Below, in pieces: positions 4,639 to 62,042 of a stretch of 64,000 nucleotides of DNA. Below the pieces are notes generated by a model that was not told the DNA's origin, did no database searches, and saw nothing but the letters and a program-made list of their open reading frames with translations. The position numbers and the translations under genes are program-made. Positions within the stretch are counted from its first letter, which is position 1. The number at the start of each line of letters is the position of its first letter. This DNA comes from an uncultured Candidatus Saccharibacteria bacterium (lineage in GTDB: Bacteria; Patescibacteriota; Minisyncoccia; Minisyncoccales; CAZUZH01), in contig CAZUZH010000001.1 in the NCBI GenBank assembly GCA_964624815.1, positions 1,090 to 65,089 of the forward strand. Direction: 5' to 3'.

Positions 4639-5478
4639 GTGGAAACCATAACTATGGAAAATCCATTTGAACATTTTAATAATATCAGAGAGGCCCGAAA
4701 GAGATTTATGCCAATGGTTTTTGCTCTTTTATCCCTTTTTATTTTTGTTTTGATAATTTCTTTTATTGTTGACATTAACAACAAGATTAAACAAGGGAGA
4801 TACATTGGACAGGATATTGAATCGCAGAACACTATTAGTGTTTCAGCAACCGGAGAGGTTTATACTAAGCCGGATTTAGCTATAACCAGTTTTTCTGTTC
4901 TCACCGAAAAAGCAACAGTTGATGAGGCTTTGAAAGAAAATAGTGAAAAAATGAACAAAATAATTGAGTTTGTAAAATCCCAGGGGGTTTCTGATAAAGA
5001 TTTAAAAACCACTGGCTTGAATATTTATCCGCGCTATGAGTGGAAGAGAGAAACATTAATTTGGCCCCAGCCAGAGGGAAAAAGAGTTTTAATTGGATAT
5101 GAAGTTCGTCAGTCTTTACAGGTTAAAATCAGAGAAATGGAAAAAGTGGGGGCTATTATTCAGGGAGCAACTAGTGCCGGCGCCAACCAGATAGGTGATT
5201 TAAGGTTTACTATTGACAACGAGGATGAGTTTAAGAATCAGGCAAGAAAACAGGCAATTCATGAGGCAAAAGAAAAAGCCAAAGAATTAGCCAAGCAGTT
5301 GGGGGTGAAATTAGTAAAAATTAAAAACTTTTCCGAGAGCGGAATATATCCTCGTTATTACAGTTTGGATGTTGCCGAAGCCGTTGGCAAAGGCGGGGGC
5401 GAAACGCCAACGCCCCAAATAGAAACCGGCGAAAACAAGATAGAAGTAACGGTGAGTATAATTTATGAGATAAATTAA
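4639..5478 (+). CDS. SIMPL/DUF541 domain protein (BP26-like periplasmic protein)
   Basis: N-terminal TM anchor and the SIMPL-family length and architecture. Confidence 0.6.
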   Translation: METITMENPFEHFNNIREARKRFMPMVFALLSLFIFVLIISFIVDINNKIKQGRYIGQDIESQNTISVSATGEVYTKPDLAITSFSVLTEKATVDEALKENSEKMNKIIEFVKSQGVSDKDLKTTGLNIYPRYEWKRETLIWPQPEGKRVLIGYEVRQSLQVKIREMEKVGAIIQGATSAGANQIGDLRFTIDNEDEFKNQARKQAIHEAKEKAKELAKQLGVKLVKIKNFSESGIYPRYYSLDVAEAVGKGGGETPTPQIETGENKIEVTVSIIYEIN

Positions 5479-5572: not shown

Positions 5573-5625
5573 CCTGTACAGCGGTTGGACATTTTTAGCA
5601 AACGATCGTTTACTAAAAATGTCCA
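5573..5625. repeat. REP-like palindromic element, copy A (cctgtacagcggttggacatttttagcaaacgatcgtttactaaaaatgtcca)
   Basis: 52 of 53 nt identical to 24042-24094. Core palindrome GCAAACGA-T-CGTTTGC, shared with 19137-19172. Confidence 0.6.
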
Positions 5626-5728: not shown

Positions 5729-6997
5729 ATGAAATTCATTGCAGATTTTCATATTCATTCTAAATATTCCAGGGCAACGAGCAAGGATATGGATTTAGAG
5801 CATTTGGACAAGTGGGCGAAAATAAAGGGCGTCAATGTTTTGGGAACTGGGGACTTTACGCATCCGGAGTGGTTAGCTCATTTGAAAGAAAATTTGGAAC
5901 CGGCAGAATCCGGACTTTTTAAATTAAAGTCTCCTGTCCCGACTTCGGTCGGGGCACGGCAAGAAACTCGTTTTATTCTCACCAGCGAGATTAGCTGTAT
6001 TTATTCCAAGAACGGGAAAGTGAGAAAAGTTCATATTTTAGTTTTTGCTTCTGATTTTAAGACAGTTGAAAAAATAAATGCTCACTTGGGCTGTATAGGG
6101 AATTTAAAATCAGACGGACGGCCTATTTTAGGATTAGACTCTAAAGAATTAGCAAAAATTGTTTTAGAATGTTCGGCTGACTGCTTGGTGGTCCCGGCTC
6201 ACTTATACACACCCTGGTTTTCTTTATTTGGTTCTAAATCAGGGTTTGATTCAATAGAAGAATGTTTTGAAGAATATTCAAAATATATTTTTGCCGGGGA
6301 AACGGGACTAAGTTCGGATCCCCCGATGAGCTGGCGGAATTCATCTCTTGATAAAATTACTCTAATCAGTAATTCAGACGCGCACTCGCCCCAGAAAATA
6401 GGAAGAGAGGTAAATGTTTTTGACACAGAAATTAGTTATTCAGCTATTGCCAAGGCTATAAAAGAAAAAAATCCCAAAGAGTTTTTATATACCGTAGAGT
6501 TTTTCCCCCAGGAAGGCAAGTATCATTATGACGGCCATAGGGCTTGCGATATAAGTTTATCACCCCAAGAATCTAAAAAATATAATAATATATGCCCGGT
6601 TTGCGGAAAACCTTTAACCATCGGCGTTTTGAACCGAGTTGAAGAATTAGCAGACAGAGAAGAAGGTTTTAAGCCGGAAAATGCCATTCCTTTTAAAAGC
6701 CTTATTCCTTTGCCCGAAATTATCGGTTCAGCCGTTGGCGTGGGACCGGCCAGTAAGCAAGTTGCCAAGGAATATGATAATTTGATTGAGAAATTTGGCA
6801 ATGAGTTTAATATTTTATTGGAGGCAAGCCGAGGGAATTTGGAAGGAGTCACTAAGCAGGAAATTGCCGAAGGGATTATTCGGGTAAGGGAAGGAAAAGT
6901 TTATGTAGAACCCGGCTATGACGGAGTCTATGGAAAGATAAATATATTTTCACAAGAAGAAAAGAAAAAACCGACAAAACAAGATACTCTTTTTTAA
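5729..6997 (+). CDS. PHP-domain nuclease, endonuclease Q-like
   Basis: N-terminal DFHIHSKYS PHP motif, about 420 aa, C-terminal CPVCGK zinc-finger-like motif as in EndoQ. Confidence 0.5.
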   Translation: MKFIADFHIHSKYSRATSKDMDLEHLDKWAKIKGVNVLGTGDFTHPEWLAHLKENLEPAESGLFKLKSPVPTSVGARQETRFILTSEISCIYSKNGKVRKVHILVFASDFKTVEKINAHLGCIGNLKSDGRPILGLDSKELAKIVLECSADCLVVPAHLYTPWFSLFGSKSGFDSIEECFEEYSKYIFAGETGLSSDPPMSWRNSSLDKITLISNSDAHSPQKIGREVNVFDTEISYSAIAKAIKEKNPKEFLYTVEFFPQEGKYHYDGHRACDISLSPQESKKYNNICPVCGKPLTIGVLNRVEELADREEGFKPENAIPFKSLIPLPEIIGSAVGVGPASKQVAKEYDNLIEKFGNEFNILLEASRGNLEGVTKQEIAEGIIRVREGKVYVEPGYDGVYGKINIFSQEEKKKPTKQDTLF

Positions 6998-19107: not shown

Positions 19108-19136
19108 AACACAATCGGATATCTCGAGAATTTTTA

Positions 19137-19172
19137 GACATAATTGGCAAACGACCGTTTGCCAATTATGTC
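19137..19172. repeat. REP-like palindrome gacataattggcaaacgaccgtttgccaattatgtc (17-bp arms) between convergent genes
   Basis: Shares the core GCAAACGA-N-CGTTTGC with the elements at 5573 and 24042. Confidence 0.5.
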
Positions 19173-19216
19173 TACTTTATTGTAATGATGTAACATTACC
19201 TTTGTGCGTTATATTA

Positions 19217-24041: not shown

Positions 24042-24094
24042 CCTGTACAGCGGTTGGACATTTTTAGCAAACGATCGTTTGCTAAAAATGTCCA
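24042..24094. repeat. REP-like palindromic element, copy B
   Basis: 52 of 53 nt identical to 5573-5625. Followed by the same TGATAAGAT-6 nt-ATG arrangement. Confidence 0.6.
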
Positions 24095-24189
24095 ATATTG
24101 GTTTCTTTAAAAAATGAGTTAAGCTCCTTTTTCTGTATCTGCGGGAAAATTAAATTGAATTATTAGGATTAATCTGATAAGATAAAAAT

Positions 24190-28178: not shown

Positions 28179-28374
28179 TTTTGCTTTGCAAAATAAATTC
28201 GAAATTCGAATGTAGAAATTCGAAACCCCGACACTACAAATCCTTCGGATTTGAGTACGGGGCAGGCAAATTCAAGACTTAGATATTGCTTGCCCCGTAG
28301 TTAACGAGCGATAGCGAATTATGCTACGGGGTTTAGCGCTTCGCGCTTCGGATTTCCGTTGCGGAGCAACGGCT

Positions 28375-29121
28375 GTGGCTATTCACTACCGTACCAAAGG
28401 AATTATCTTAAAGAAAGAGGAACGAGGGGAGGCCGATTTTTTATTTACCATTTATACCAAGGATTTCGGCAAGCTGGATATTTTGGGAAAGGCAATCAGA
28501 AAAATTAAATCAAAGCTGCGAGCTGGAGCACGGGATTTTTGTTTAAGCGAAATAGAGTTTATTCAAGGAAAAACTTATAAAACTTTAACCGATGCCATTT
28601 TAATAGAGGAATTTAAAAATTTAAAAACAGATTTAAGGAAATTAAAAATTACTTATGAAATCACTAAAATTTTAGATAATTTAGTCAGCGGTCAAGAAAA
28701 AGACGAAAATATTTGGAATTTACTAATTGAAACTTTCCAGAGATTAAACAGCAGTCAATTGTCAATCATTAATTGTCAATTGTTATATTATTATGTTTTT
28801 CTATACAACCTCTTTTCTTTTTTAGGATATCAGCCCCAGCTTTACAATTGCGTTTTGTGCGGCAAAAAATTAGAGATAGAGAAACTTTATTGGAGCCCAG
28901 AAGAGGGCGGGGTTGTTTGTAAAAAGTGTTTTAATAACATAGATGAAAAATCAAAACTTCAAAAAATAGATGTTGAGATAATTAAGATTTTACGGCTTTT
29001 ACTTCAAAAAGACTGGCAGACAATAAGTAAATTAAAATTATCACCCATTCATTTAGAAAAATTAAAAAGCATTTCTGATGATTATCTTTTACATATTTCT
29101 GGCAACATTCACCCAAATTAG
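28375..29121 (+). CDS. recO: DNA repair protein RecO
   Basis: An OB-fold N-terminus (TKGIILKKEERGEAD) and a zinc finger CVLCGK...VVCKKC. The start was moved to the in-frame GTG at 28375, because the 28321-28374 extension of the track ORF is GC-rich hairpin sequence. Confidence 0.7.
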   Translation: MAIHYRTKGIILKKEERGEADFLFTIYTKDFGKLDILGKAIRKIKSKLRAGARDFCLSEIEFIQGKTYKTLTDAILIEEFKNLKTDLRKLKITYEITKILDNLVSGQEKDENIWNLLIETFQRLNSSQLSIINCQLLYYYVFLYNLFSFLGYQPQLYNCVLCGKKLEIEKLYWSPEEGGVVCKKCFNNIDEKSKLQKIDVEIIKILRLLLQKDWQTISKLKLSPIHLEKLKSISDDYLLHISGNIHPN

Positions 29122-38384: not shown

Positions 38385-39263
38385 ATGCTAATTGATACTC
38401 ATGCCCATCTTAATTTTGCTGTTTTTAAAAATGATAGAGATAAAGTAATAAGACGGGCGCTAGACAATAATGTCTGGTTCATTAATGTTGGCTCAAATTA
38501 TGAAAGAAGCAAAAAAGCAGTAGAAATTGCTCAAAAATATGCTGAAGGGATATATGCGGCAATTGGTTTACATCCAATTCATCTCCAAGAAACAAAAGAC
38601 CCAGAGGAATTATCTGGAAGTTTAAGCCCAGCAGAGAAATTTGATAAAGAAAAATATTATCAATTAGCGCAGTCACCAAAAGTAGTAGCAATTGGCGAAA
38701 TAGGCTTGGATTATTATCATTTATCAGGGAATAAGAAATCAACGAAATGTGCGGAGGCCTTGCCTCCGCACATTTGCGGAGGTCTTGCCTCCGCACACTC
38801 TACACAGATAGAATTGCAAAAGCAAGTTTTTGTTCATCAATTAGAATTAGCTAACGAAATAGACAAACCAGTTATTGTTCATTGCCGGGAAGCGCACAAG
38901 GATGTTTTAGAAATTTTAAAGAAGCGAAAACAAAAATTAAAAAATCTGCGTGGAGTTATTCATAGTTTTTCCGGCCGTTGGTCCCAAGCTCAAGAATATT
39001 TTGATTTAGGATTTTTAATTGGTTTGAATGGCATTATTACTTTTGCCCGTGATTATGACAAGGTTATTATAAACAGTCCTTTGGAAAAAGTTCTAATTGA
39101 AACAGATTGTCCATATTTAACCCCAATTCCTTTCCGTGGCAAACGCAACGAACCTTTGTATGTAAAATATGTAGCAGAAAAAATCGCAGAGATAAAAAAC
39201 ATATCAGTTGAAGAAGTAGTAAGAACAACGACAGAGAACGCAAGAAAATTATTTAGTTTTTAA
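38385..39263 (+). CDS. tatD: TatD-family metal-dependent hydrolase (DNase)
   Basis: N-terminal MLIDTHAHLNF motif and TatD length. Carries the GC-rich insertion at 38748-38797. Confidence 0.8.
   Translation: MLIDTHAHLNFAVFKNDRDKVIRRALDNNVWFINVGSNYERSKKAVEIAQKYAEGIYAAIGLHPIHLQETKDPEELSGSLSPAEKFDKEKYYQLAQSPKVVAIGEIGLDYYHLSGNKKSTKCAEALPPHICGGLASAHSTQIELQKQVFVHQLELANEIDKPVIVHCREAHKDVLEILKKRKQKLKNLRGVIHSFSGRWSQAQEYFDLGFLIGLNGIITFARDYDKVIINSPLEKVLIETDCPYLTPIPFRGKRNEPLYVKYVAEKIAEIKNISVEEVVRTTTENARKLFSF
38748..38797 (+). repeat. Two tandem copies of a GC-rich palindrome (tgcggaggccttgcctccgca) inserted in-frame in tatD (encodes CAEALPPHICGGLASAH)
   Basis: Perfect hairpins, about 60% GC within an AT-rich gene. 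Confidence 0.6.
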
Positions 39264-43618: not shown

Positions 43619-43624
43619 ATTTGT

Positions 43625-43666
43625 AGAAGTCTAATTTTCTTGCCTAGGCAAGAAAATTAGACTTCT
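43625..43666. repeat. Palindromic element agaagtctaattttcttgcc-taggcaagaaaattagacttct (terminator-like REP)
   Basis: Perfect 20-bp arms. A partial copy lies at 17555-17588. Confidence 0.5.
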
Positions 43667-43685
43667 AACTCAATGTTCGTCCCTT

Positions 43686-52092: not shown

Positions 52093-54228
52093 TTACTTCA
52101 CAAAATCGCATTCTTTATTGCTGCATTTGATTTTTTTACCGGATTCCACAAGCAAAGAGCCGCATTTTGGGCAATTTTCTCCAGTTCCTGCCTGCCGGCC
52201 AGGCAGGGGTTTGTCCCACAAAGCAAAATCGCATTTTGGATATTGGTTGCAGGCATAAAATATTTTTCCTTTTTTAGTTTTCTTTTCAGTAATTTCGCCT
52301 TGACCGCACTTAGGGCATTTTATTCCAAGAGTTTGTTTCTCTAATGGTTCAGTGTATTTGCATTCAGGAAACTTTGGACAGGCGTAGAATTTGCCAAATC
52401 TGCCAAGCCGAATGACAAGTTTTGCTCCGCACTTGGGGCATTTTTTTTCAGTTTCTTTAATAATGCCTTTTTTAGAAACCTCTTCATATTTCTTTTCAAG
52501 ATTTTTAGCAAAAGGCTCATAAAACTTTCGGACAATCGGCTGCCATTTTTCTTTGCCTTGAGAAATTTTGTCTAAATCTTTTTCCATATTAGCTGTAAAT
52601 TTAATATTAACAATTTTTGGGAAATGTTTAACTAAAAGGTCATTAACAATTTCACCAATTTCTGTTGGCTGGAATTTTTTATTCTCATTTTTTTCAACAT
52701 AATTTCTTGTTTGAATGGTGGAAAGAGTCGGAGCATAAGTTGATGGACGACCAATATCATTTTGCTCCAAAGCCTTAATCAGGGTCGCCTCACTGTATCT
52801 CGGAGCAGGCTGGGTAAAGTGCTGGGAAGGAATAAGTTTGAGCAGTTCTAATATTTCATTTTCTTTCAGTAAAGGCAATTCTGCTTCCTGAAACTTTATG
52901 GGAAAGATTTTCAGAAATCCGTCAAATTTTAAAATTTGGCCCGTGGCCCGAAAAGTATAGTTATCGGCTTCAATATTTATTGCAGTGGAGTCAAAAACAG
53001 CTTGAGCCATTTGAGATGCTGTAAATCTTCTCCATATTAAATCATAAAGCTTAAATTGCCTGCTGTCTAGTTTTTCCTGCCCAGTAGCATCCCGAAGGGA
53101 TTGCTTCGGGGCCTTAATTTTCAATTGGTCTGGAATACGGTCAGGATAAGTTGGTCTAATTGCTTCGTGGGCTTCCTGGGCCCTGCCTTTAGCCTTGTAT
53201 TTTCTCAGAAATCCAGCCCAGTATTCTTTTCCATAGTTTTCAAAGATAAATTTTTTAGCCCCGAAAAGAGCTAAATCAGAAAGATTCAAAGAATCTGTCC
53301 TGTGATAAGTGATATGTCCTCTTTCATAAAGCTGCTGTGCTAAGCTCATTGTCATTTTAGCTGGAAATCGGAGTTTTTTCCATGATTCCTGTTGAAGGGT
53401 ACTAGTAGTAAAAGGAGGCAATGGATTTCTTTTTACTTCTTTTTTTTCAACATTTGAAATCTTATATTCTGTTTTGTCCAAATCTTTAACAATTTCCTCA
53501 GCCTCTTTTTTGTTTTTAATTCCAAGCTTGGGAATTGTTTTTCCATCTTTTTTTATCAGTAAAGCTTTAAATTCTTGCTTTGCGTCAGTTTCGCGCGATT
53601 GAAGCAAGGCTTCAATTGACCAGTATTCCTGCGCTTTGAAGTTCTTAATTTCTTTTTCTCTTTCAACTACTAAACGGACAGTCACTGACTGGACCCTGCC
53701 GGCAGAAAGTCCTTTGACAACCTTTTTCCATAAGAAAGGTGAAAGCTTGTATCCAACAATTCTATCCAAGACTCTCCGAGCTTGCTGTGCATCAACCAAA
53801 TTCATATCAATTTCCCTTGGCTTTTTCACAGCTTCCTTAATCGCCTGTTTAGTAATTTCGTGAAACACTATCCTTTGATAGGGTTTGGTGTTTGGTGTTT
53901 GGTGCTTCCCAAGTCCTAAGGCTTTGGTAAGATGCCAGGCTATTGCTTCACCCTCTCTATCCTCGTCAGTAGCCAAGATAACTGTTTCTGTTTTTTCTAA
54001 TGCTTTTTTCAAAATATTTACATTTTTTCTGGCTTTAAGCGGAACAACATATTTAGGTTTGAAGTTATTTCCAAAATCTATTCCCAATTCACCTTTTGGT
54101 AAATCACGAATATGACCCATAGTTGCGGCAATTTGGTAATTTTTTCCAAGAAACCCTCTCAGGGTCTTGGATTTTGTTGGTGATTCGACTATTACGAGAT
54201 TCATAAAAGAAAAATTTAAAATTGTCAA
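52093..54228 (-). CDS. topA: DNA topoisomerase I
   Basis: Toprim (NLVIVESPTKSKTL), a catalytic Tyr region and C-terminal CxxC zinc ribbons. Carries the (caccaaa)x3 insertion at 53881-53905. Confidence 0.9.
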   Translation of the reverse strand: MTILNFSFMNLVIVESPTKSKTLRGFLGKNYQIAATMGHIRDLPKGELGIDFGNNFKPKYVVPLKARKNVNILKKALEKTETVILATDEDREGEAIAWHLTKALGLGKHQTPNTKPYQRIVFHEITKQAIKEAVKKPREIDMNLVDAQQARRVLDRIVGYKLSPFLWKKVVKGLSAGRVQSVTVRLVVEREKEIKNFKAQEYWSIEALLQSRETDAKQEFKALLIKKDGKTIPKLGIKNKKEAEEIVKDLDKTEYKISNVEKKEVKRNPLPPFTTSTLQQESWKKLRFPAKMTMSLAQQLYERGHITYHRTDSLNLSDLALFGAKKFIFENYGKEYWAGFLRKYKAKGRAQEAHEAIRPTYPDRIPDQLKIKAPKQSLRDATGQEKLDSRQFKLYDLIWRRFTASQMAQAVFDSTAINIEADNYTFRATGQILKFDGFLKIFPIKFQEAELPLLKENEILELLKLIPSQHFTQPAPRYSEATLIKALEQNDIGRPSTYAPTLSTIQTRNYVEKNENKKFQPTEIGEIVNDLLVKHFPKIVNIKFTANMEKDLDKISQGKEKWQPIVRKFYEPFAKNLEKKYEEVSKKGIIKETEKKCPKCGAKLVIRLGRFGKFYACPKFPECKYTEPLEKQTLGIKCPKCGQGEITEKKTKKGKIFYACNQYPKCDFALWDKPLPGRQAGTGENCPKCGSLLVESGKKIKCSNKECDFVK

Positions 54229-57695: not shown

Positions 57696-59012
57696 ATGAG
57701 AAAACCAAAATTTCAAGCACCAACAGGTATGCATGATATTTTGCCGAAAGACCAGAAATACTTTAAAAAGATTTATAATGTCGTTGACAAGATAGTTGCT
57801 TTTTATGGTTTTGAGAAAATTGACACGCCGACTTTGGAGCAGGCGGAACTTTTTTCAAAAGGAATTGGACTGACAACAGAGATAATTGAAAAGCAGATGT
57901 ATGTTCTTCGCACAAAGGGCAAAGATCTTTTGGCTTTGCGTCCGGAAGGAACTGCTTCTGTTATCCGCGCCTATATTGAGCAAGGCATGGCAAGCCTTCC
58001 GTCGCCCATAAAGCTTTGGTATTTCGGACCATTTTTTAGATACGAGAGGCCGCAGGCCGGACGGTATCGTCAGTTTCATCAATTCGGTTTAGAAATTTTG
58101 GGAGAGAAAAGTTCAGCAGCTGATGCTCAGCTTATTCAGATTTTCTTCAATATTTTAAAAGAGCTAAAGATTAAAAATTTATTAGTTGAGATAAACAGCA
58201 TTGGAGATTCTCAATGCAGGCCATATTATAAAAAACTTTTAGTGAGCTATTTCCGCTCTCGTCAACAATCTTTATGTGCTGACTGCCGAAGAAGAATTCG
58301 GGAAAATCCCTTCAGAATCTTGGATTGCAAGGAAGAAAAGTGCCGGAGAATCAAAGCTCAAGCGCCTCAGATTATTGACCATCTTTGTCAGGAGTGTAAT
58401 ACACATTTTAGAGAGGTTTTGGAATTTTTGGATGAGCTGGAAATACCCTACAATCTTAATCCTTATTTGGTTCGCGGTCTTGATTATTATACTAAAACAG
58501 TTTTTGAAATAAGCAGTAGAGCTGAAGATACTTTTCTTTCTAATAATAAAGATTATAATGAGAAAAAAAATCTCGGAGCATTGGTAGGGGGAGGCAGATA
58601 TGATGCATTAATAAAGACTTTGGGCGGGAAGGAAGCTCCAGCTTGCGGCGGAGCTGCAGGCATAGAGAGAATTATAGAATTAATGAAAGAGAAAGACAGT
58701 AAAAAAGAAAAAGACGCAGCAATTGCTAAAATTTACTTAGCTCAGCTTGGTGGTTTGGCAAAAAGAAAAAGTTTAAAGCTTTTTGAAGAATTCCGCAAAA
58801 ATAAGATAAGAGTGGCTGAATCTTTTGGAAGGGATTCCTTAAAGGCCCAGTTAAAGACAGCTGATAAACTGGGAGTAAAATATACTTTGATTCTTGGACA
58901 GAAAGAGGCTATAGAAAGAACGATTATTGTCAGAAGAATGGATACAGGGAAACAGGAAATAGTGAAATTGGATAAAATTGTGGAGGTAATGAAGAGAAAG
59001 CTGAGAAAATGA
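57696..59012 (+). CDS. hisS: histidine--tRNA ligase
   Basis: Class II motifs 1 to 3, an HisRS-specific GGRYD motif and a C-terminal anticodon-binding domain. Confidence 0.9.
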   Translation: MRKPKFQAPTGMHDILPKDQKYFKKIYNVVDKIVAFYGFEKIDTPTLEQAELFSKGIGLTTEIIEKQMYVLRTKGKDLLALRPEGTASVIRAYIEQGMASLPSPIKLWYFGPFFRYERPQAGRYRQFHQFGLEILGEKSSAADAQLIQIFFNILKELKIKNLLVEINSIGDSQCRPYYKKLLVSYFRSRQQSLCADCRRRIRENPFRILDCKEEKCRRIKAQAPQIIDHLCQECNTHFREVLEFLDELEIPYNLNPYLVRGLDYYTKTVFEISSRAEDTFLSNNKDYNEKKNLGALVGGGRYDALIKTLGGKEAPACGGAAGIERIIELMKEKDSKKEKDAAIAKIYLAQLGGLAKRKSLKLFEEFRKNKIRVAESFGRDSLKAQLKTADKLGVKYTLILGQKEAIERTIIVRRMDTGKQEIVKLDKIVEVMKRKLRK

Positions 59013-61465: not shown

Positions 61466-61918
61466 ATGATTAATCAAGCTTTTTCTAAAATTGGTATTCT
61501 AATTATTGTTATTATTCTCATTGGCGGAGTATTTTTAGCTTGGCAGTATTCTTGGCAGTATTTAGGAGGACAGAAAGGGGGAATAAAACTTTCAGAAGGA
61601 GAAGAAATTTTTCCCTCAGAAGGTGATGAGGTTGTAAGTATAGGAATGTTTCCTAACATTGATAGTTTTGATTTAATAAATAAAACATTTGAGGGGCTCA
61701 CTCAAACCGAAGGGAAGAAGATAAAAGTAATAACTAGTGATTCTACAAAGTTTTATAGCACGGCAGAACCAGACTGGGAAAAAGAGCATTTCACCTTTTC
61801 TGAATTTCACTCATTACTTAAAAATTGGGATGGCCCACCTTGGCCCTTTACGGTAAAGGGAATTTTTGAAGAGGAAAGCGTGATAAAAGCCGAAAAGATA
61901 TTTTATATTATACAATAA
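61466..61918 (+). CDS. hypothetical membrane-anchored protein
   Basis: A single N-terminal TM segment. Confidence 0.35.
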   Translation: MINQAFSKIGILIIVIILIGGVFLAWQYSWQYLGGQKGGIKLSEGEEIFPSEGDEVVSIGMFPNIDSFDLINKTFEGLTQTEGKKIKVITSDSTKFYSTAEPDWEKEHFTFSEFHSLLKNWDGPPWPFTVKGIFEEESVIKAEKIFYIIQ

Positions 61919-62042
61919 AAATAATTTGTAGTTTCTATTTCTTCGCTGTTTGTCAAGAGTAGAGTTTAACTGCATAAATTGCAGTTTCTCCTCACGCCCG
62001 CCTGCAGCCGGGCGGGAGGAGGTAAACTCTTTTCTTATACTT

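Follow-up and report, generated by a model that had tools for sequence, protein, structure and literature searches.

Rickettsia palindromic elements (RPEs) are roughly 100-150 bp in length, occur in many copies per genome and fall into defined sequence families. Their palindromic DNA lies in frame within genes for Rickettsia housekeeping proteins, where it is translated, occupies tolerated sites and is absent from the orthologues, and it carries a CGTC terminal tag (PMC3733652). An insertion with several of these properties was analysed in the tatD gene of an uncultured bacterium, on a stretch of 64 kb (contig CAZUZH010000001.1 of assembly GCA_964624815.1, the whole of which is hereafter referred to as the window). 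It consists of two adjacent GC-rich palindromes and is probably a young, lineage-specific passenger insertion of GC-rich hairpin DNA, tandemly duplicated and tolerated in the most length-variable loop of the TatD protein.

Like the RPEs, the TatD insert lies in frame at a tolerated site of a functional protein gene, is predicted to be translated and is absent from the orthologues, and its host is likewise a small, AT-rich, host-dependent bacterium. Unlike them, it is made up of a 25-nt unit present twice, has no tag, no second locus in the 64 kb and no sequence shared with the RPEs, whose consensus was not aligned. Membership of an RPE sequence family is excluded by the size (51 nt) and the host (Parcubacteria) alone.

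The repetitive extragenic palindromic sequences (REPs) are defined by GTAG or CGTC at one end of the stem; a minority of them lie inside open reading frames (ORFs), and different REPs occupy the same recB site in related Xanthomonas species (PMC3733652). REPs mobilised by REP-associated tyrosine transposases (RAYTs) resemble the TatD insert in being GC-rich imperfect palindromes of 20-40 nt, often present as dimers and in some cases intragenic; the 25-nt units of the insert, with stems of 8-14 bp, fall within this size range. The insert differs from them in having neither GTAG nor CGTC at the stem, in the direct tandem arrangement of its copies as against the usually inverted dimers of REPs, and in that one locus only was seen in the 64 kb and no RAYT/IS200 gene was detected among the 41 ORFs of the window scanned.

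Short hairpins are also known from mitochondria, where GC clusters, double-hairpin elements and repetitive hairpin-forming elements (yeast, Allomyces, sponges) and the coding palindromes of Nematomorpha are in some cases located inside protein or rRNA genes, at sites of variable length (PMC2800124, PMC6649704). Such elements share with the TatD insert a short GC-rich hairpin in an AT-rich genome, sometimes paired and occasionally within a gene; they differ in being organellar, in having many dispersed copies per genome and in lacking any sequence relationship to it. Intrinsic terminators are comparable in stem size, GC content and loop, whereas the TatD hairpins lie inside coding sequence and have no U-tract on the sense strand. 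The insert was rejected as an intrinsic terminator on these grounds and for want of a sense-strand call, the minus strand of the first hairpin alone passing the scan. No description of in-frame palindromic inserts in the candidate phyla radiation (CPR) was found in the searchable literature, and the analogy makes the TatD insert a putative counterpart of the palindromic inserts of Rickettsia genes.

Structure of the insert and its host protein

The features of the locus are listed below.

38385-39263 (+): gene for a TatD-family metal-dependent hydrolase of 292 aa, its frame intact through the insert; PF01026 over residues 3-291 (E = 1.9e-82)
38718-38747 (+): native part of the beta4-alpha4 loop lying 5' of the insert, H112-K121 (HLSGNKKSTK), corresponding in the alignments to the loops of 13-16 aa in orthologues that have no insert
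38748-38798 (+): in-frame insertion of 51 nt, 17 codons, C122-H138 (CAEALPPHICGGLASAH)
38750-38770: palindrome copy 1, TGCGGAGGCCTTGCCTCCGCA
38775-38795: palindrome copy 2, with one mismatch, TGCGGAGGTCTTGCCTCCGCA
38750-38774 and 38775-38799: the two 25-nt units of the direct tandem repeat, 23/25 identical
38745-38775 (+): hairpin 1, a perfect 14-bp stem AAATGTGCGGAGGC, loop CTT, GCCTCCGCACATTT, the stem reaching into the flanks
38775-38795 (+): hairpin 2, an 8-bp stem TGCGGAGG / CCTCCGCA with the 5-nt loop TCTTG, a tandem copy of the core of hairpin 1

The locus reads ...AAA TCA ACG AAA TGT GCG GAG GCC TTG CCT CCG CAC ATT TGC GGA GGT CTT GCC TCC GCA CAC TCT ACA CAG..., and its GC content is 64.7% over 38748-38798 compared with 33.2% across the remainder of tatD. 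An earlier note on this DNA, made from the sequence alone, had described two adjacent palindromes read through in frame in a TatD gene. All of this agrees with the Pfam match, the intact ORF and the dinucleotide-preserving shuffles, in which the chance expectation is 0.00, and 0.01 for the stem-only pattern. The note had also taken both copies for perfect hairpins, a description that suits hairpin 1, which is longer than had been supposed, and fails for hairpin 2, which is imperfect at the loop-proximal position (T/G). The region 38738-38805 folds at -40.2 kcal/mol as RNA (z = -8.6) and at -25.5 kcal/mol as DNA (z = -9.1), values that 0/200 shuffles equal in either case; in RNA, the two copies are also able to pair mutually as one nested helix. 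No Rfam family was matched at the TatD hairpins.

Seven independent assemblies of JGI and Logan data, which come from different samples and pipelines, contain identical insert DNA; the insert is therefore real sequence and not an artefact of assembly.

The host protein retains the signature motifs of the family (HxH, GExGLD, HxR, H-F-G and ETD-P) together with the invariant residues H6, H8, E105, H166, H193 and D241. Alignments to the TatD/YcfH homologues in the PDB (best E = 4.9e-56) cover residues 2-112 and 141-290 and skip residues 113-140. The insert falls in the loop between strand beta4, residues 100-109 (VVAIGEIGLD), and the long helix alpha4, which opens with a conserved LQKxVF motif. 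In proteins with a TIM-barrel topology, the beta-alpha loop after beta4 belongs to the catalytic (C-terminal) face, where the active site of TatD is situated. An AlphaFold model built with 35 orthologues as input has a mean predicted local distance difference test (pLDDT) score of 89 and a predicted template modelling (pTM) score of 0.88, and pLDDT drops below 50 only at residues 116-134. On the best-supported reading, the insert is translated as a disordered loop of 17 residues.

Several other explanations of the 51 nt were considered and rejected. Programmed translational bypass of the T4 gene 60 type, which calls for a gap of about 50 nt with an in-frame stop and matched take-off and landing codons, is incompatible with an insert that is open and in frame, with conserved TatD sequence continuing downstream in the same frame. 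A CRISPR or TIGR mini-array would not be expected to have two repeats only, a 4-nt spacer and a position inside a conserved ORF, and an intein or intron would be far longer and, unlike the insert, not left in the translated sequence. Adapter sequences bear no resemblance to the insert, which seven assemblies carry.

Hairpins in the loops of related TatD proteins and of TopA

The best homologues of the protein come from metagenome-assembled genomes of Parcubacteria and Portnoybacteria. Among the 120 best homologues, the insert peptide is present in two, P0001 (100% identical) and P0121, which are near-identical variants from related samples, and is missing from the other 118. The tatD gene encoding P0121 (L134:1110-1988) equals that of the window save for 14 substitutions, all within nt 18-68. 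The region upstream of it is highly divergent from the window, and the pattern has the appearance of a breakpoint of recombination within the 5' part of tatD.

In the closest insert-free relative, P0003, the loop is 15 aa long as against 33 aa in the window, and the gap in the DNA alignment falls at the insert. These comparisons bear out the suggestion of the earlier note that the peptide is not ancestral TatD sequence: the TatD structures skip it, and the orthologues with the same peptide, which the note had named as evidence to the contrary, do not occur among the 120 homologues beyond the same population. Judged from the sequences, the insert is lineage-specific and not ancestral, and it is probably of recent evolutionary date.

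A neighbour-joining tree based on the conserved columns groups the TatD of the window with P0003 and with P0002, whose 32-aa loop holds a different hairpin, CCTCCTCCTCCTCC/TTT/GGGAGGGGGAGG. In a DNA alignment of the three genes, the inserts of the window and of P0002 lie only a few nt apart, and the two hairpins are likely to represent independent events at one site.

Variation in length is concentrated in two loops of the orthologues:

loop 1 (after GLDYY): 8-16 residues in 85/117 orthologues, expanded to 19-43 in 32/117
loop 2 (after the HCR motif): baseline of 16-23 residues, expanded to 26-63 in about 20 orthologues

Loop 1, which carries the insert, ranges from 8 to 43 residues among the Parcubacteria TatDs, and the expansions of both loops are scattered patchily over the tree. 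Of the eight expanded orthologues read as DNA, seven have at least one clear GC-rich hairpin in their extra sequence, with fold z-scores down to -8.4; the sole exception is P0023 (L139), whose expanded loop has no clear hairpin (z about 0). Some orthologues have AT-rich, low-complexity expansions of K, N and Q in loop 1. The hairpins include the following:

P0017: loop hairpin CCCCGCACCGATATATCGGTGCGGGG
P0028: three hairpins in the extra sequence
P0102 (L136): loop hairpins CCTACCGGCAGGCAGG and CCCCG...CGGGG
P0059, P0034 and P0117: loop 2 hairpin CCCCTCTTAATTTAAGAGGGG, translated as PPLNLRGG, with two cores in tandem in P0034

The PPLNLRGG hairpin of loop 2 (CCCCTCTTAAWTTAAGAGGGG) belongs to a conserved palindrome some 50 nt long, here referred to as the PPLNLRGG element. 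Its consensus is TAACGCCCCC-N-CCCCTCTTAAWTTAAGAGGGG-N-GGGGGAGTTA, and it was located as follows:

L132:1545-1600, L137:1040-1145 (two cores in tandem) and L138:1095-1140: in TatD loop 2
L140:620-680 and 4950-5015, L141 and L143-L145: in other contigs

An exact-match scan of IMG/VR gave seven contigs with the element, of which five have it in frame in ORFs other than TatD, of 188, 268, 314, 517 and 749 codons, and one of these five contigs has two copies; the remaining two contigs share identical flanks, and the longest open frame through the element is of 31 codons. Its translation, (N)AP.PPL(N/K)LRGG.GGV, is common to TatD loop 2 and the unrelated ORFs. From this in-frame spread over unrelated ORFs it follows that this part of the tree does harbour palindromic elements that enter the reading frames of many genes. 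The element resembles the TatD insert in its in-frame position in a TatD loop, its GC-rich stem and the tandem cores seen on L137, and differs from it in having another consensus and in being demonstrably dispersed. No copy was found in the 64-kb window, and a literature search returned no published name or peptide match for it.

A second in-frame hairpin is present in the window itself:

52187-52207 (-): hairpin CCTGCCTGGCCGGCAGGCAGG of 21 nt, 81% GC and an 8-bp stem, in the gene for topoisomerase I (TopA, ORF 52093-54228)

The seven extra codons that this hairpin overlaps (LPGRQAG) lie in the last zinc ribbon of the protein, with WDKP before them and TGENCPKCG after. The spacing from (K/R)P to CxxC is exactly 4 residues in 80/85 TopA orthologues and 11 in the window (WDKP, CPKC). 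The insert is shared by one orthologue, and one more has a longer relative. P0102 has the core of the TopA hairpin, CCGGCAGGCAGG, in its TatD loop as well.

Origin and maintenance of the insert

The probable history outlined at the outset treats the insert as a passenger that would have no function for the host. Small hairpin palindromes would arrive genome-wide by transposition-like or repair-mediated insertion, and selection would then keep only the frame-preserving, stop-free copies in structurally permissive loops. Because landing would be wide and survival confined to such loops, the same loops would be hit repeatedly. The 25-nt duplication (23/25 identical) may have arisen from slippage promoted by the hairpin, and the near-perfect palindromy would reflect youth rather than constraint. 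As to its kind, the insertion is by analogy one of the RPE/REP type; the standing of the TatD sequence as a repeated mobile element is a further step, and the proposition that it is a copy from a mobile element family falls somewhat short of an even chance.

Several observations weigh against such a history. The palindrome has no second locus in the window when up to 3 mismatches are allowed, and its half-sites do not occur beyond chance. The exact matches found in GTDB genomes, in viral contigs and, among the matches listed, in metagenomes are mostly terminator-like or unrelated hairpins that form no recognisable family. Five matches were found in the GTDB collection, which does not contain the source genome, those in Saccharibacteria being terminator-like or intergenic hairpins and the rest lying in high-GC genomes; more than 119 were listed in metagenomes other than the source samples, mostly on unrelated GC-rich contigs and in other repeat families; and both of the two in viral contigs are unrelated. 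With a hairpin so short, such exact matches are expected by chance and are therefore no sign of homology. In Saccharibacteria and further AT-rich contigs, the identical 19-mer GCGGAGGCCTTGCCTCCGC forms a hairpin that resembles a terminator and is accompanied by A/T tracts. A six-frame search for in-frame copies with a concatenated peptide query gave 71 word-sharing candidates, none with E <= 10, and was underpowered, TatD itself remaining unscored.

The 19-mer hairpin also occurs in a conserved context (ctggaNtGCGGAGGTCTTGCCTCCGCtctgcggcca...) on L008, L009, L015, L021, L031, L037, L038, L049 and about 15 further PDWI/PDWJ contigs with a GC content of 45-60%, which suggests an unrelated repeat or RNA family of another organism; no Rfam family was matched in L009, L021 and L031, the three of these contigs that were scanned.

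The hallmarks of mobility are likewise missing at the locus, which counts further against the favoured history. Neither GTAG nor CGTC abuts either stem, the flanks reading ...ACGAAATG|TGCGG and GCA|CACTCTAC with the nearest CTAC 5 nt off. Terminal inverted repeats are lacking apart from the palindrome itself, and the flanks TCAACGAAA and TCTACACAG, which match at 5/9 positions, give no convincing target site duplication. No transposase domain, RAYT/IS200 included, was detected in the 41 ORFs of the window scanned against Pfam; RAYT genes are usually present as a single copy per genome, and one could be situated outside the window. A miniature inverted-repeat transposable element was rejected as a candidate identity, since the whole element is palindrome, its flanks match at just those 5/9 positions and no target duplication accompanies it.

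Two further points of the same bearing concern the manner of insertion. The length of the unit, 25 nt, is not divisible by three, and the 51 nt correspond to two units plus one base, so that a single unit breaks the frame; a history in which one copy entered and was then duplicated consequently needs an extra step. The loops of P0002 and of the window are near-equal in length (32 and 33 aa), both have GGAGG/CCTCC stems and their inserts are at near-equal positions, and they may accordingly go back to one old insertion whose hairpin was preserved.

The selfish DNA of REP/RPE type postulated in the earlier note therefore stands in part. Hairpins do occur in the same loops of relatives, including one that is a member of a dispersed family, and TopA offers a parallel; what is missing is a second locus in 64 kb, a tag, terminal inverted repeats, a target duplication and, among the 41 ORFs scanned, a transposase. 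The RPE-like setting is found as expected, with an intact ORF, a site in the beta4-alpha4 loop and low pLDDT only there.

An origin on the spot, by template switching or snap-back synthesis followed by slippage and with no mobile element involved, is unlikely, though it survives better than the other alternatives. It would account for a palindrome that is a singleton in the window and for the failure to find inverted repeats, a target duplication or a transposase there, and the 25-nt tandem duplication shows that slippage has acted at the site. The K/N/Q expansions of the same loop in other orthologues are typical products of slippage, and the inserts of the orthologues would in that case mark a fragile, permissive site. 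Template switching, however, copies local sequence, yet both arms are unlike the AT-rich flanks and unlike the orthologous loop, and a GC content of 65% within a gene of 33% is left unexplained. Moreover, at least one hairpin in the TatD loops of relatives belongs to a dispersed multi-gene family with conserved termini.

Selection for a structure in the mRNA or DNA, with the palindromy kept because it serves as a pause site for the ribosome or RNA polymerase, as a target or stabiliser with respect to RNase or as an antisense terminator, is still less probable. The helices are very stable and perfect, and hairpins persist in the same loops of many diverged orthologues; the loop 2 inserts retain their PP...GG symmetry although the residues of the loop vary, and the inserts of P0002 and the window are alike in length and position. 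Against this, most orthologues, including the closest (P0003), have no insert, and the hairpin sequences are wholly different between lineages. The minus strand of hairpin 1 with its T-rich tail scores as terminator-like, but the sense strand has no U-tract and the genes neighbouring tatD are all on the + strand, with no evident antisense source. The two available copies of the insert are identical and give no measure of constraint.

On the antisense strand, 38775-38745 (-), hairpin 1 followed by CGTTGATTTC passes the consensus scan for intrinsic terminators.

An adaptive role of the peptide is very improbable. The insert follows beta4 with its conserved GEIGLD motif, on the face formed by the beta-alpha loops, and the pattern C-x6-H-x-C-x6-H places two Cys and two His at symmetric spacing, an arrangement that could be imagined to form a novel metal site, or else a flap that binds substrate and alters the specificity of TatD. 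This pattern is, however, the automatic translation of a palindrome; AlphaFold gives the loop no confident structure (pLDDT 43-62), and other lineages have unrelated peptides or nothing at the position, with no conservation beyond one population. Finally, a sequencing or assembly artefact, such as chimeric reads that can yield palindromes, or a pseudogene may be practically dismissed in view of the seven identical assemblies, the intact frame and the conservation of all catalytic motifs.

Other palindromes in the window and implications for the candidate phyla radiation

The window has a GC content of 35% and contains ordinary housekeeping genes, including those for LeuS, TopA, DprA, RecO, SmpB and tmRNA, with the MetRS gene directly upstream of tatD. 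Similar palindromes had been reported by the earlier note in the 5' extensions of the recO and ybeY ORFs (28235-28374 and 61990-62021). Both are genuine hairpins rich in GC, and both fall outside what is conserved of the neighbouring genes. With up to 3 mismatches allowed, neither has any sequence in common with the TatD palindrome, and they do not represent the same element. The first lies upstream of the conserved RecO domain, RecO_N beginning at residue 23 of the long recO ORF; the region 28215-28385 folds at -68.5 kcal/mol (z = -5.6), contains repeated TACGGGG/CCCCGTA motifs and UUCG-type loops, matches no Rfam family and could be a novel small RNA or a cluster of hairpin elements. The second, at 61986-62027, is a GC-rich hairpin CTCCTCACGCCCGCC-TGCAGCC-GGGCGGGAGGAGG followed by a T-rich tail. 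It lies in the interval that separates the ORF 61466-61918 from the probable start of ybeY (62044) and is probably a terminator.

Further palindromes and GC-rich segments were observed at the following positions:

5586-5625, 19135-19174 and 24054-24095: three intergenic, AT-rich, near-perfect palindromes of 38-42 bp with the pattern T(G/A)GACAT...GCAAACG|CGTTTGC...ATGTC(C/T)A
43624-43667: a separate perfect palindrome of 44 bp after leuS
5931-5963: GC-rich hairpin in coding sequence (ORF 5729-6997), GTCCCGAC-TTCG-GTCGGGGC, with a UUCG loop
53091-53110: GC-rich hairpin within TopA, CCCGAAGGGATTGCTTCGGG, its minus-strand reading being APKQSLRDA
1365-1390: GC-rich island in the CCA-adding enzyme, ambiguous
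58631-58662: GC-rich island in HisRS, which resembles the conserved class II motif

The intergenic AT-rich palindromes, including the one after leuS, might be operator sites or bidirectional terminators, and the hairpins at 5931-5963 and 53091-53110 may be further in-frame inserts.

A broader proposal, more tentative than that of a mobile family behind the TatD insert, is that Parcubacteria carry diverse, still-active GC-rich palindromic elements of about 20-55 nt which would time and again colonise the same permissive loops in housekeeping enzymes such as TatD and TopA, with the palindromy kept for mobility or for a role in RNA or DNA. The double hairpin of TatD would count among them as a young element of low copy number. 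The TatD case and its relatives show a pattern in which GC-rich hairpins pepper conserved enzymes at a few tolerant loops in tiny AT-rich genomes. Such inserts matter for annotation, where they appear as 'junk' peptides rich in Pro, Gly, Arg and Cys and as inflated lengths of CPR proteins, and they affect the alignment and phylogeny of marker genes as well as structure prediction; they also provide a natural map of the insertion-tolerant loops of TatD and TopA. The wider pattern in the Parcubacteria may deserve a systematic survey. If mobility or a structural constraint were established for the hairpins, they would constitute a new family of very small selfish elements, and if the broader proposal is true, such elements would be the CPR counterpart of the RPEs and of the GC clusters of mitochondria and would steadily supply new protein loops to genomes that are otherwise shrinking.

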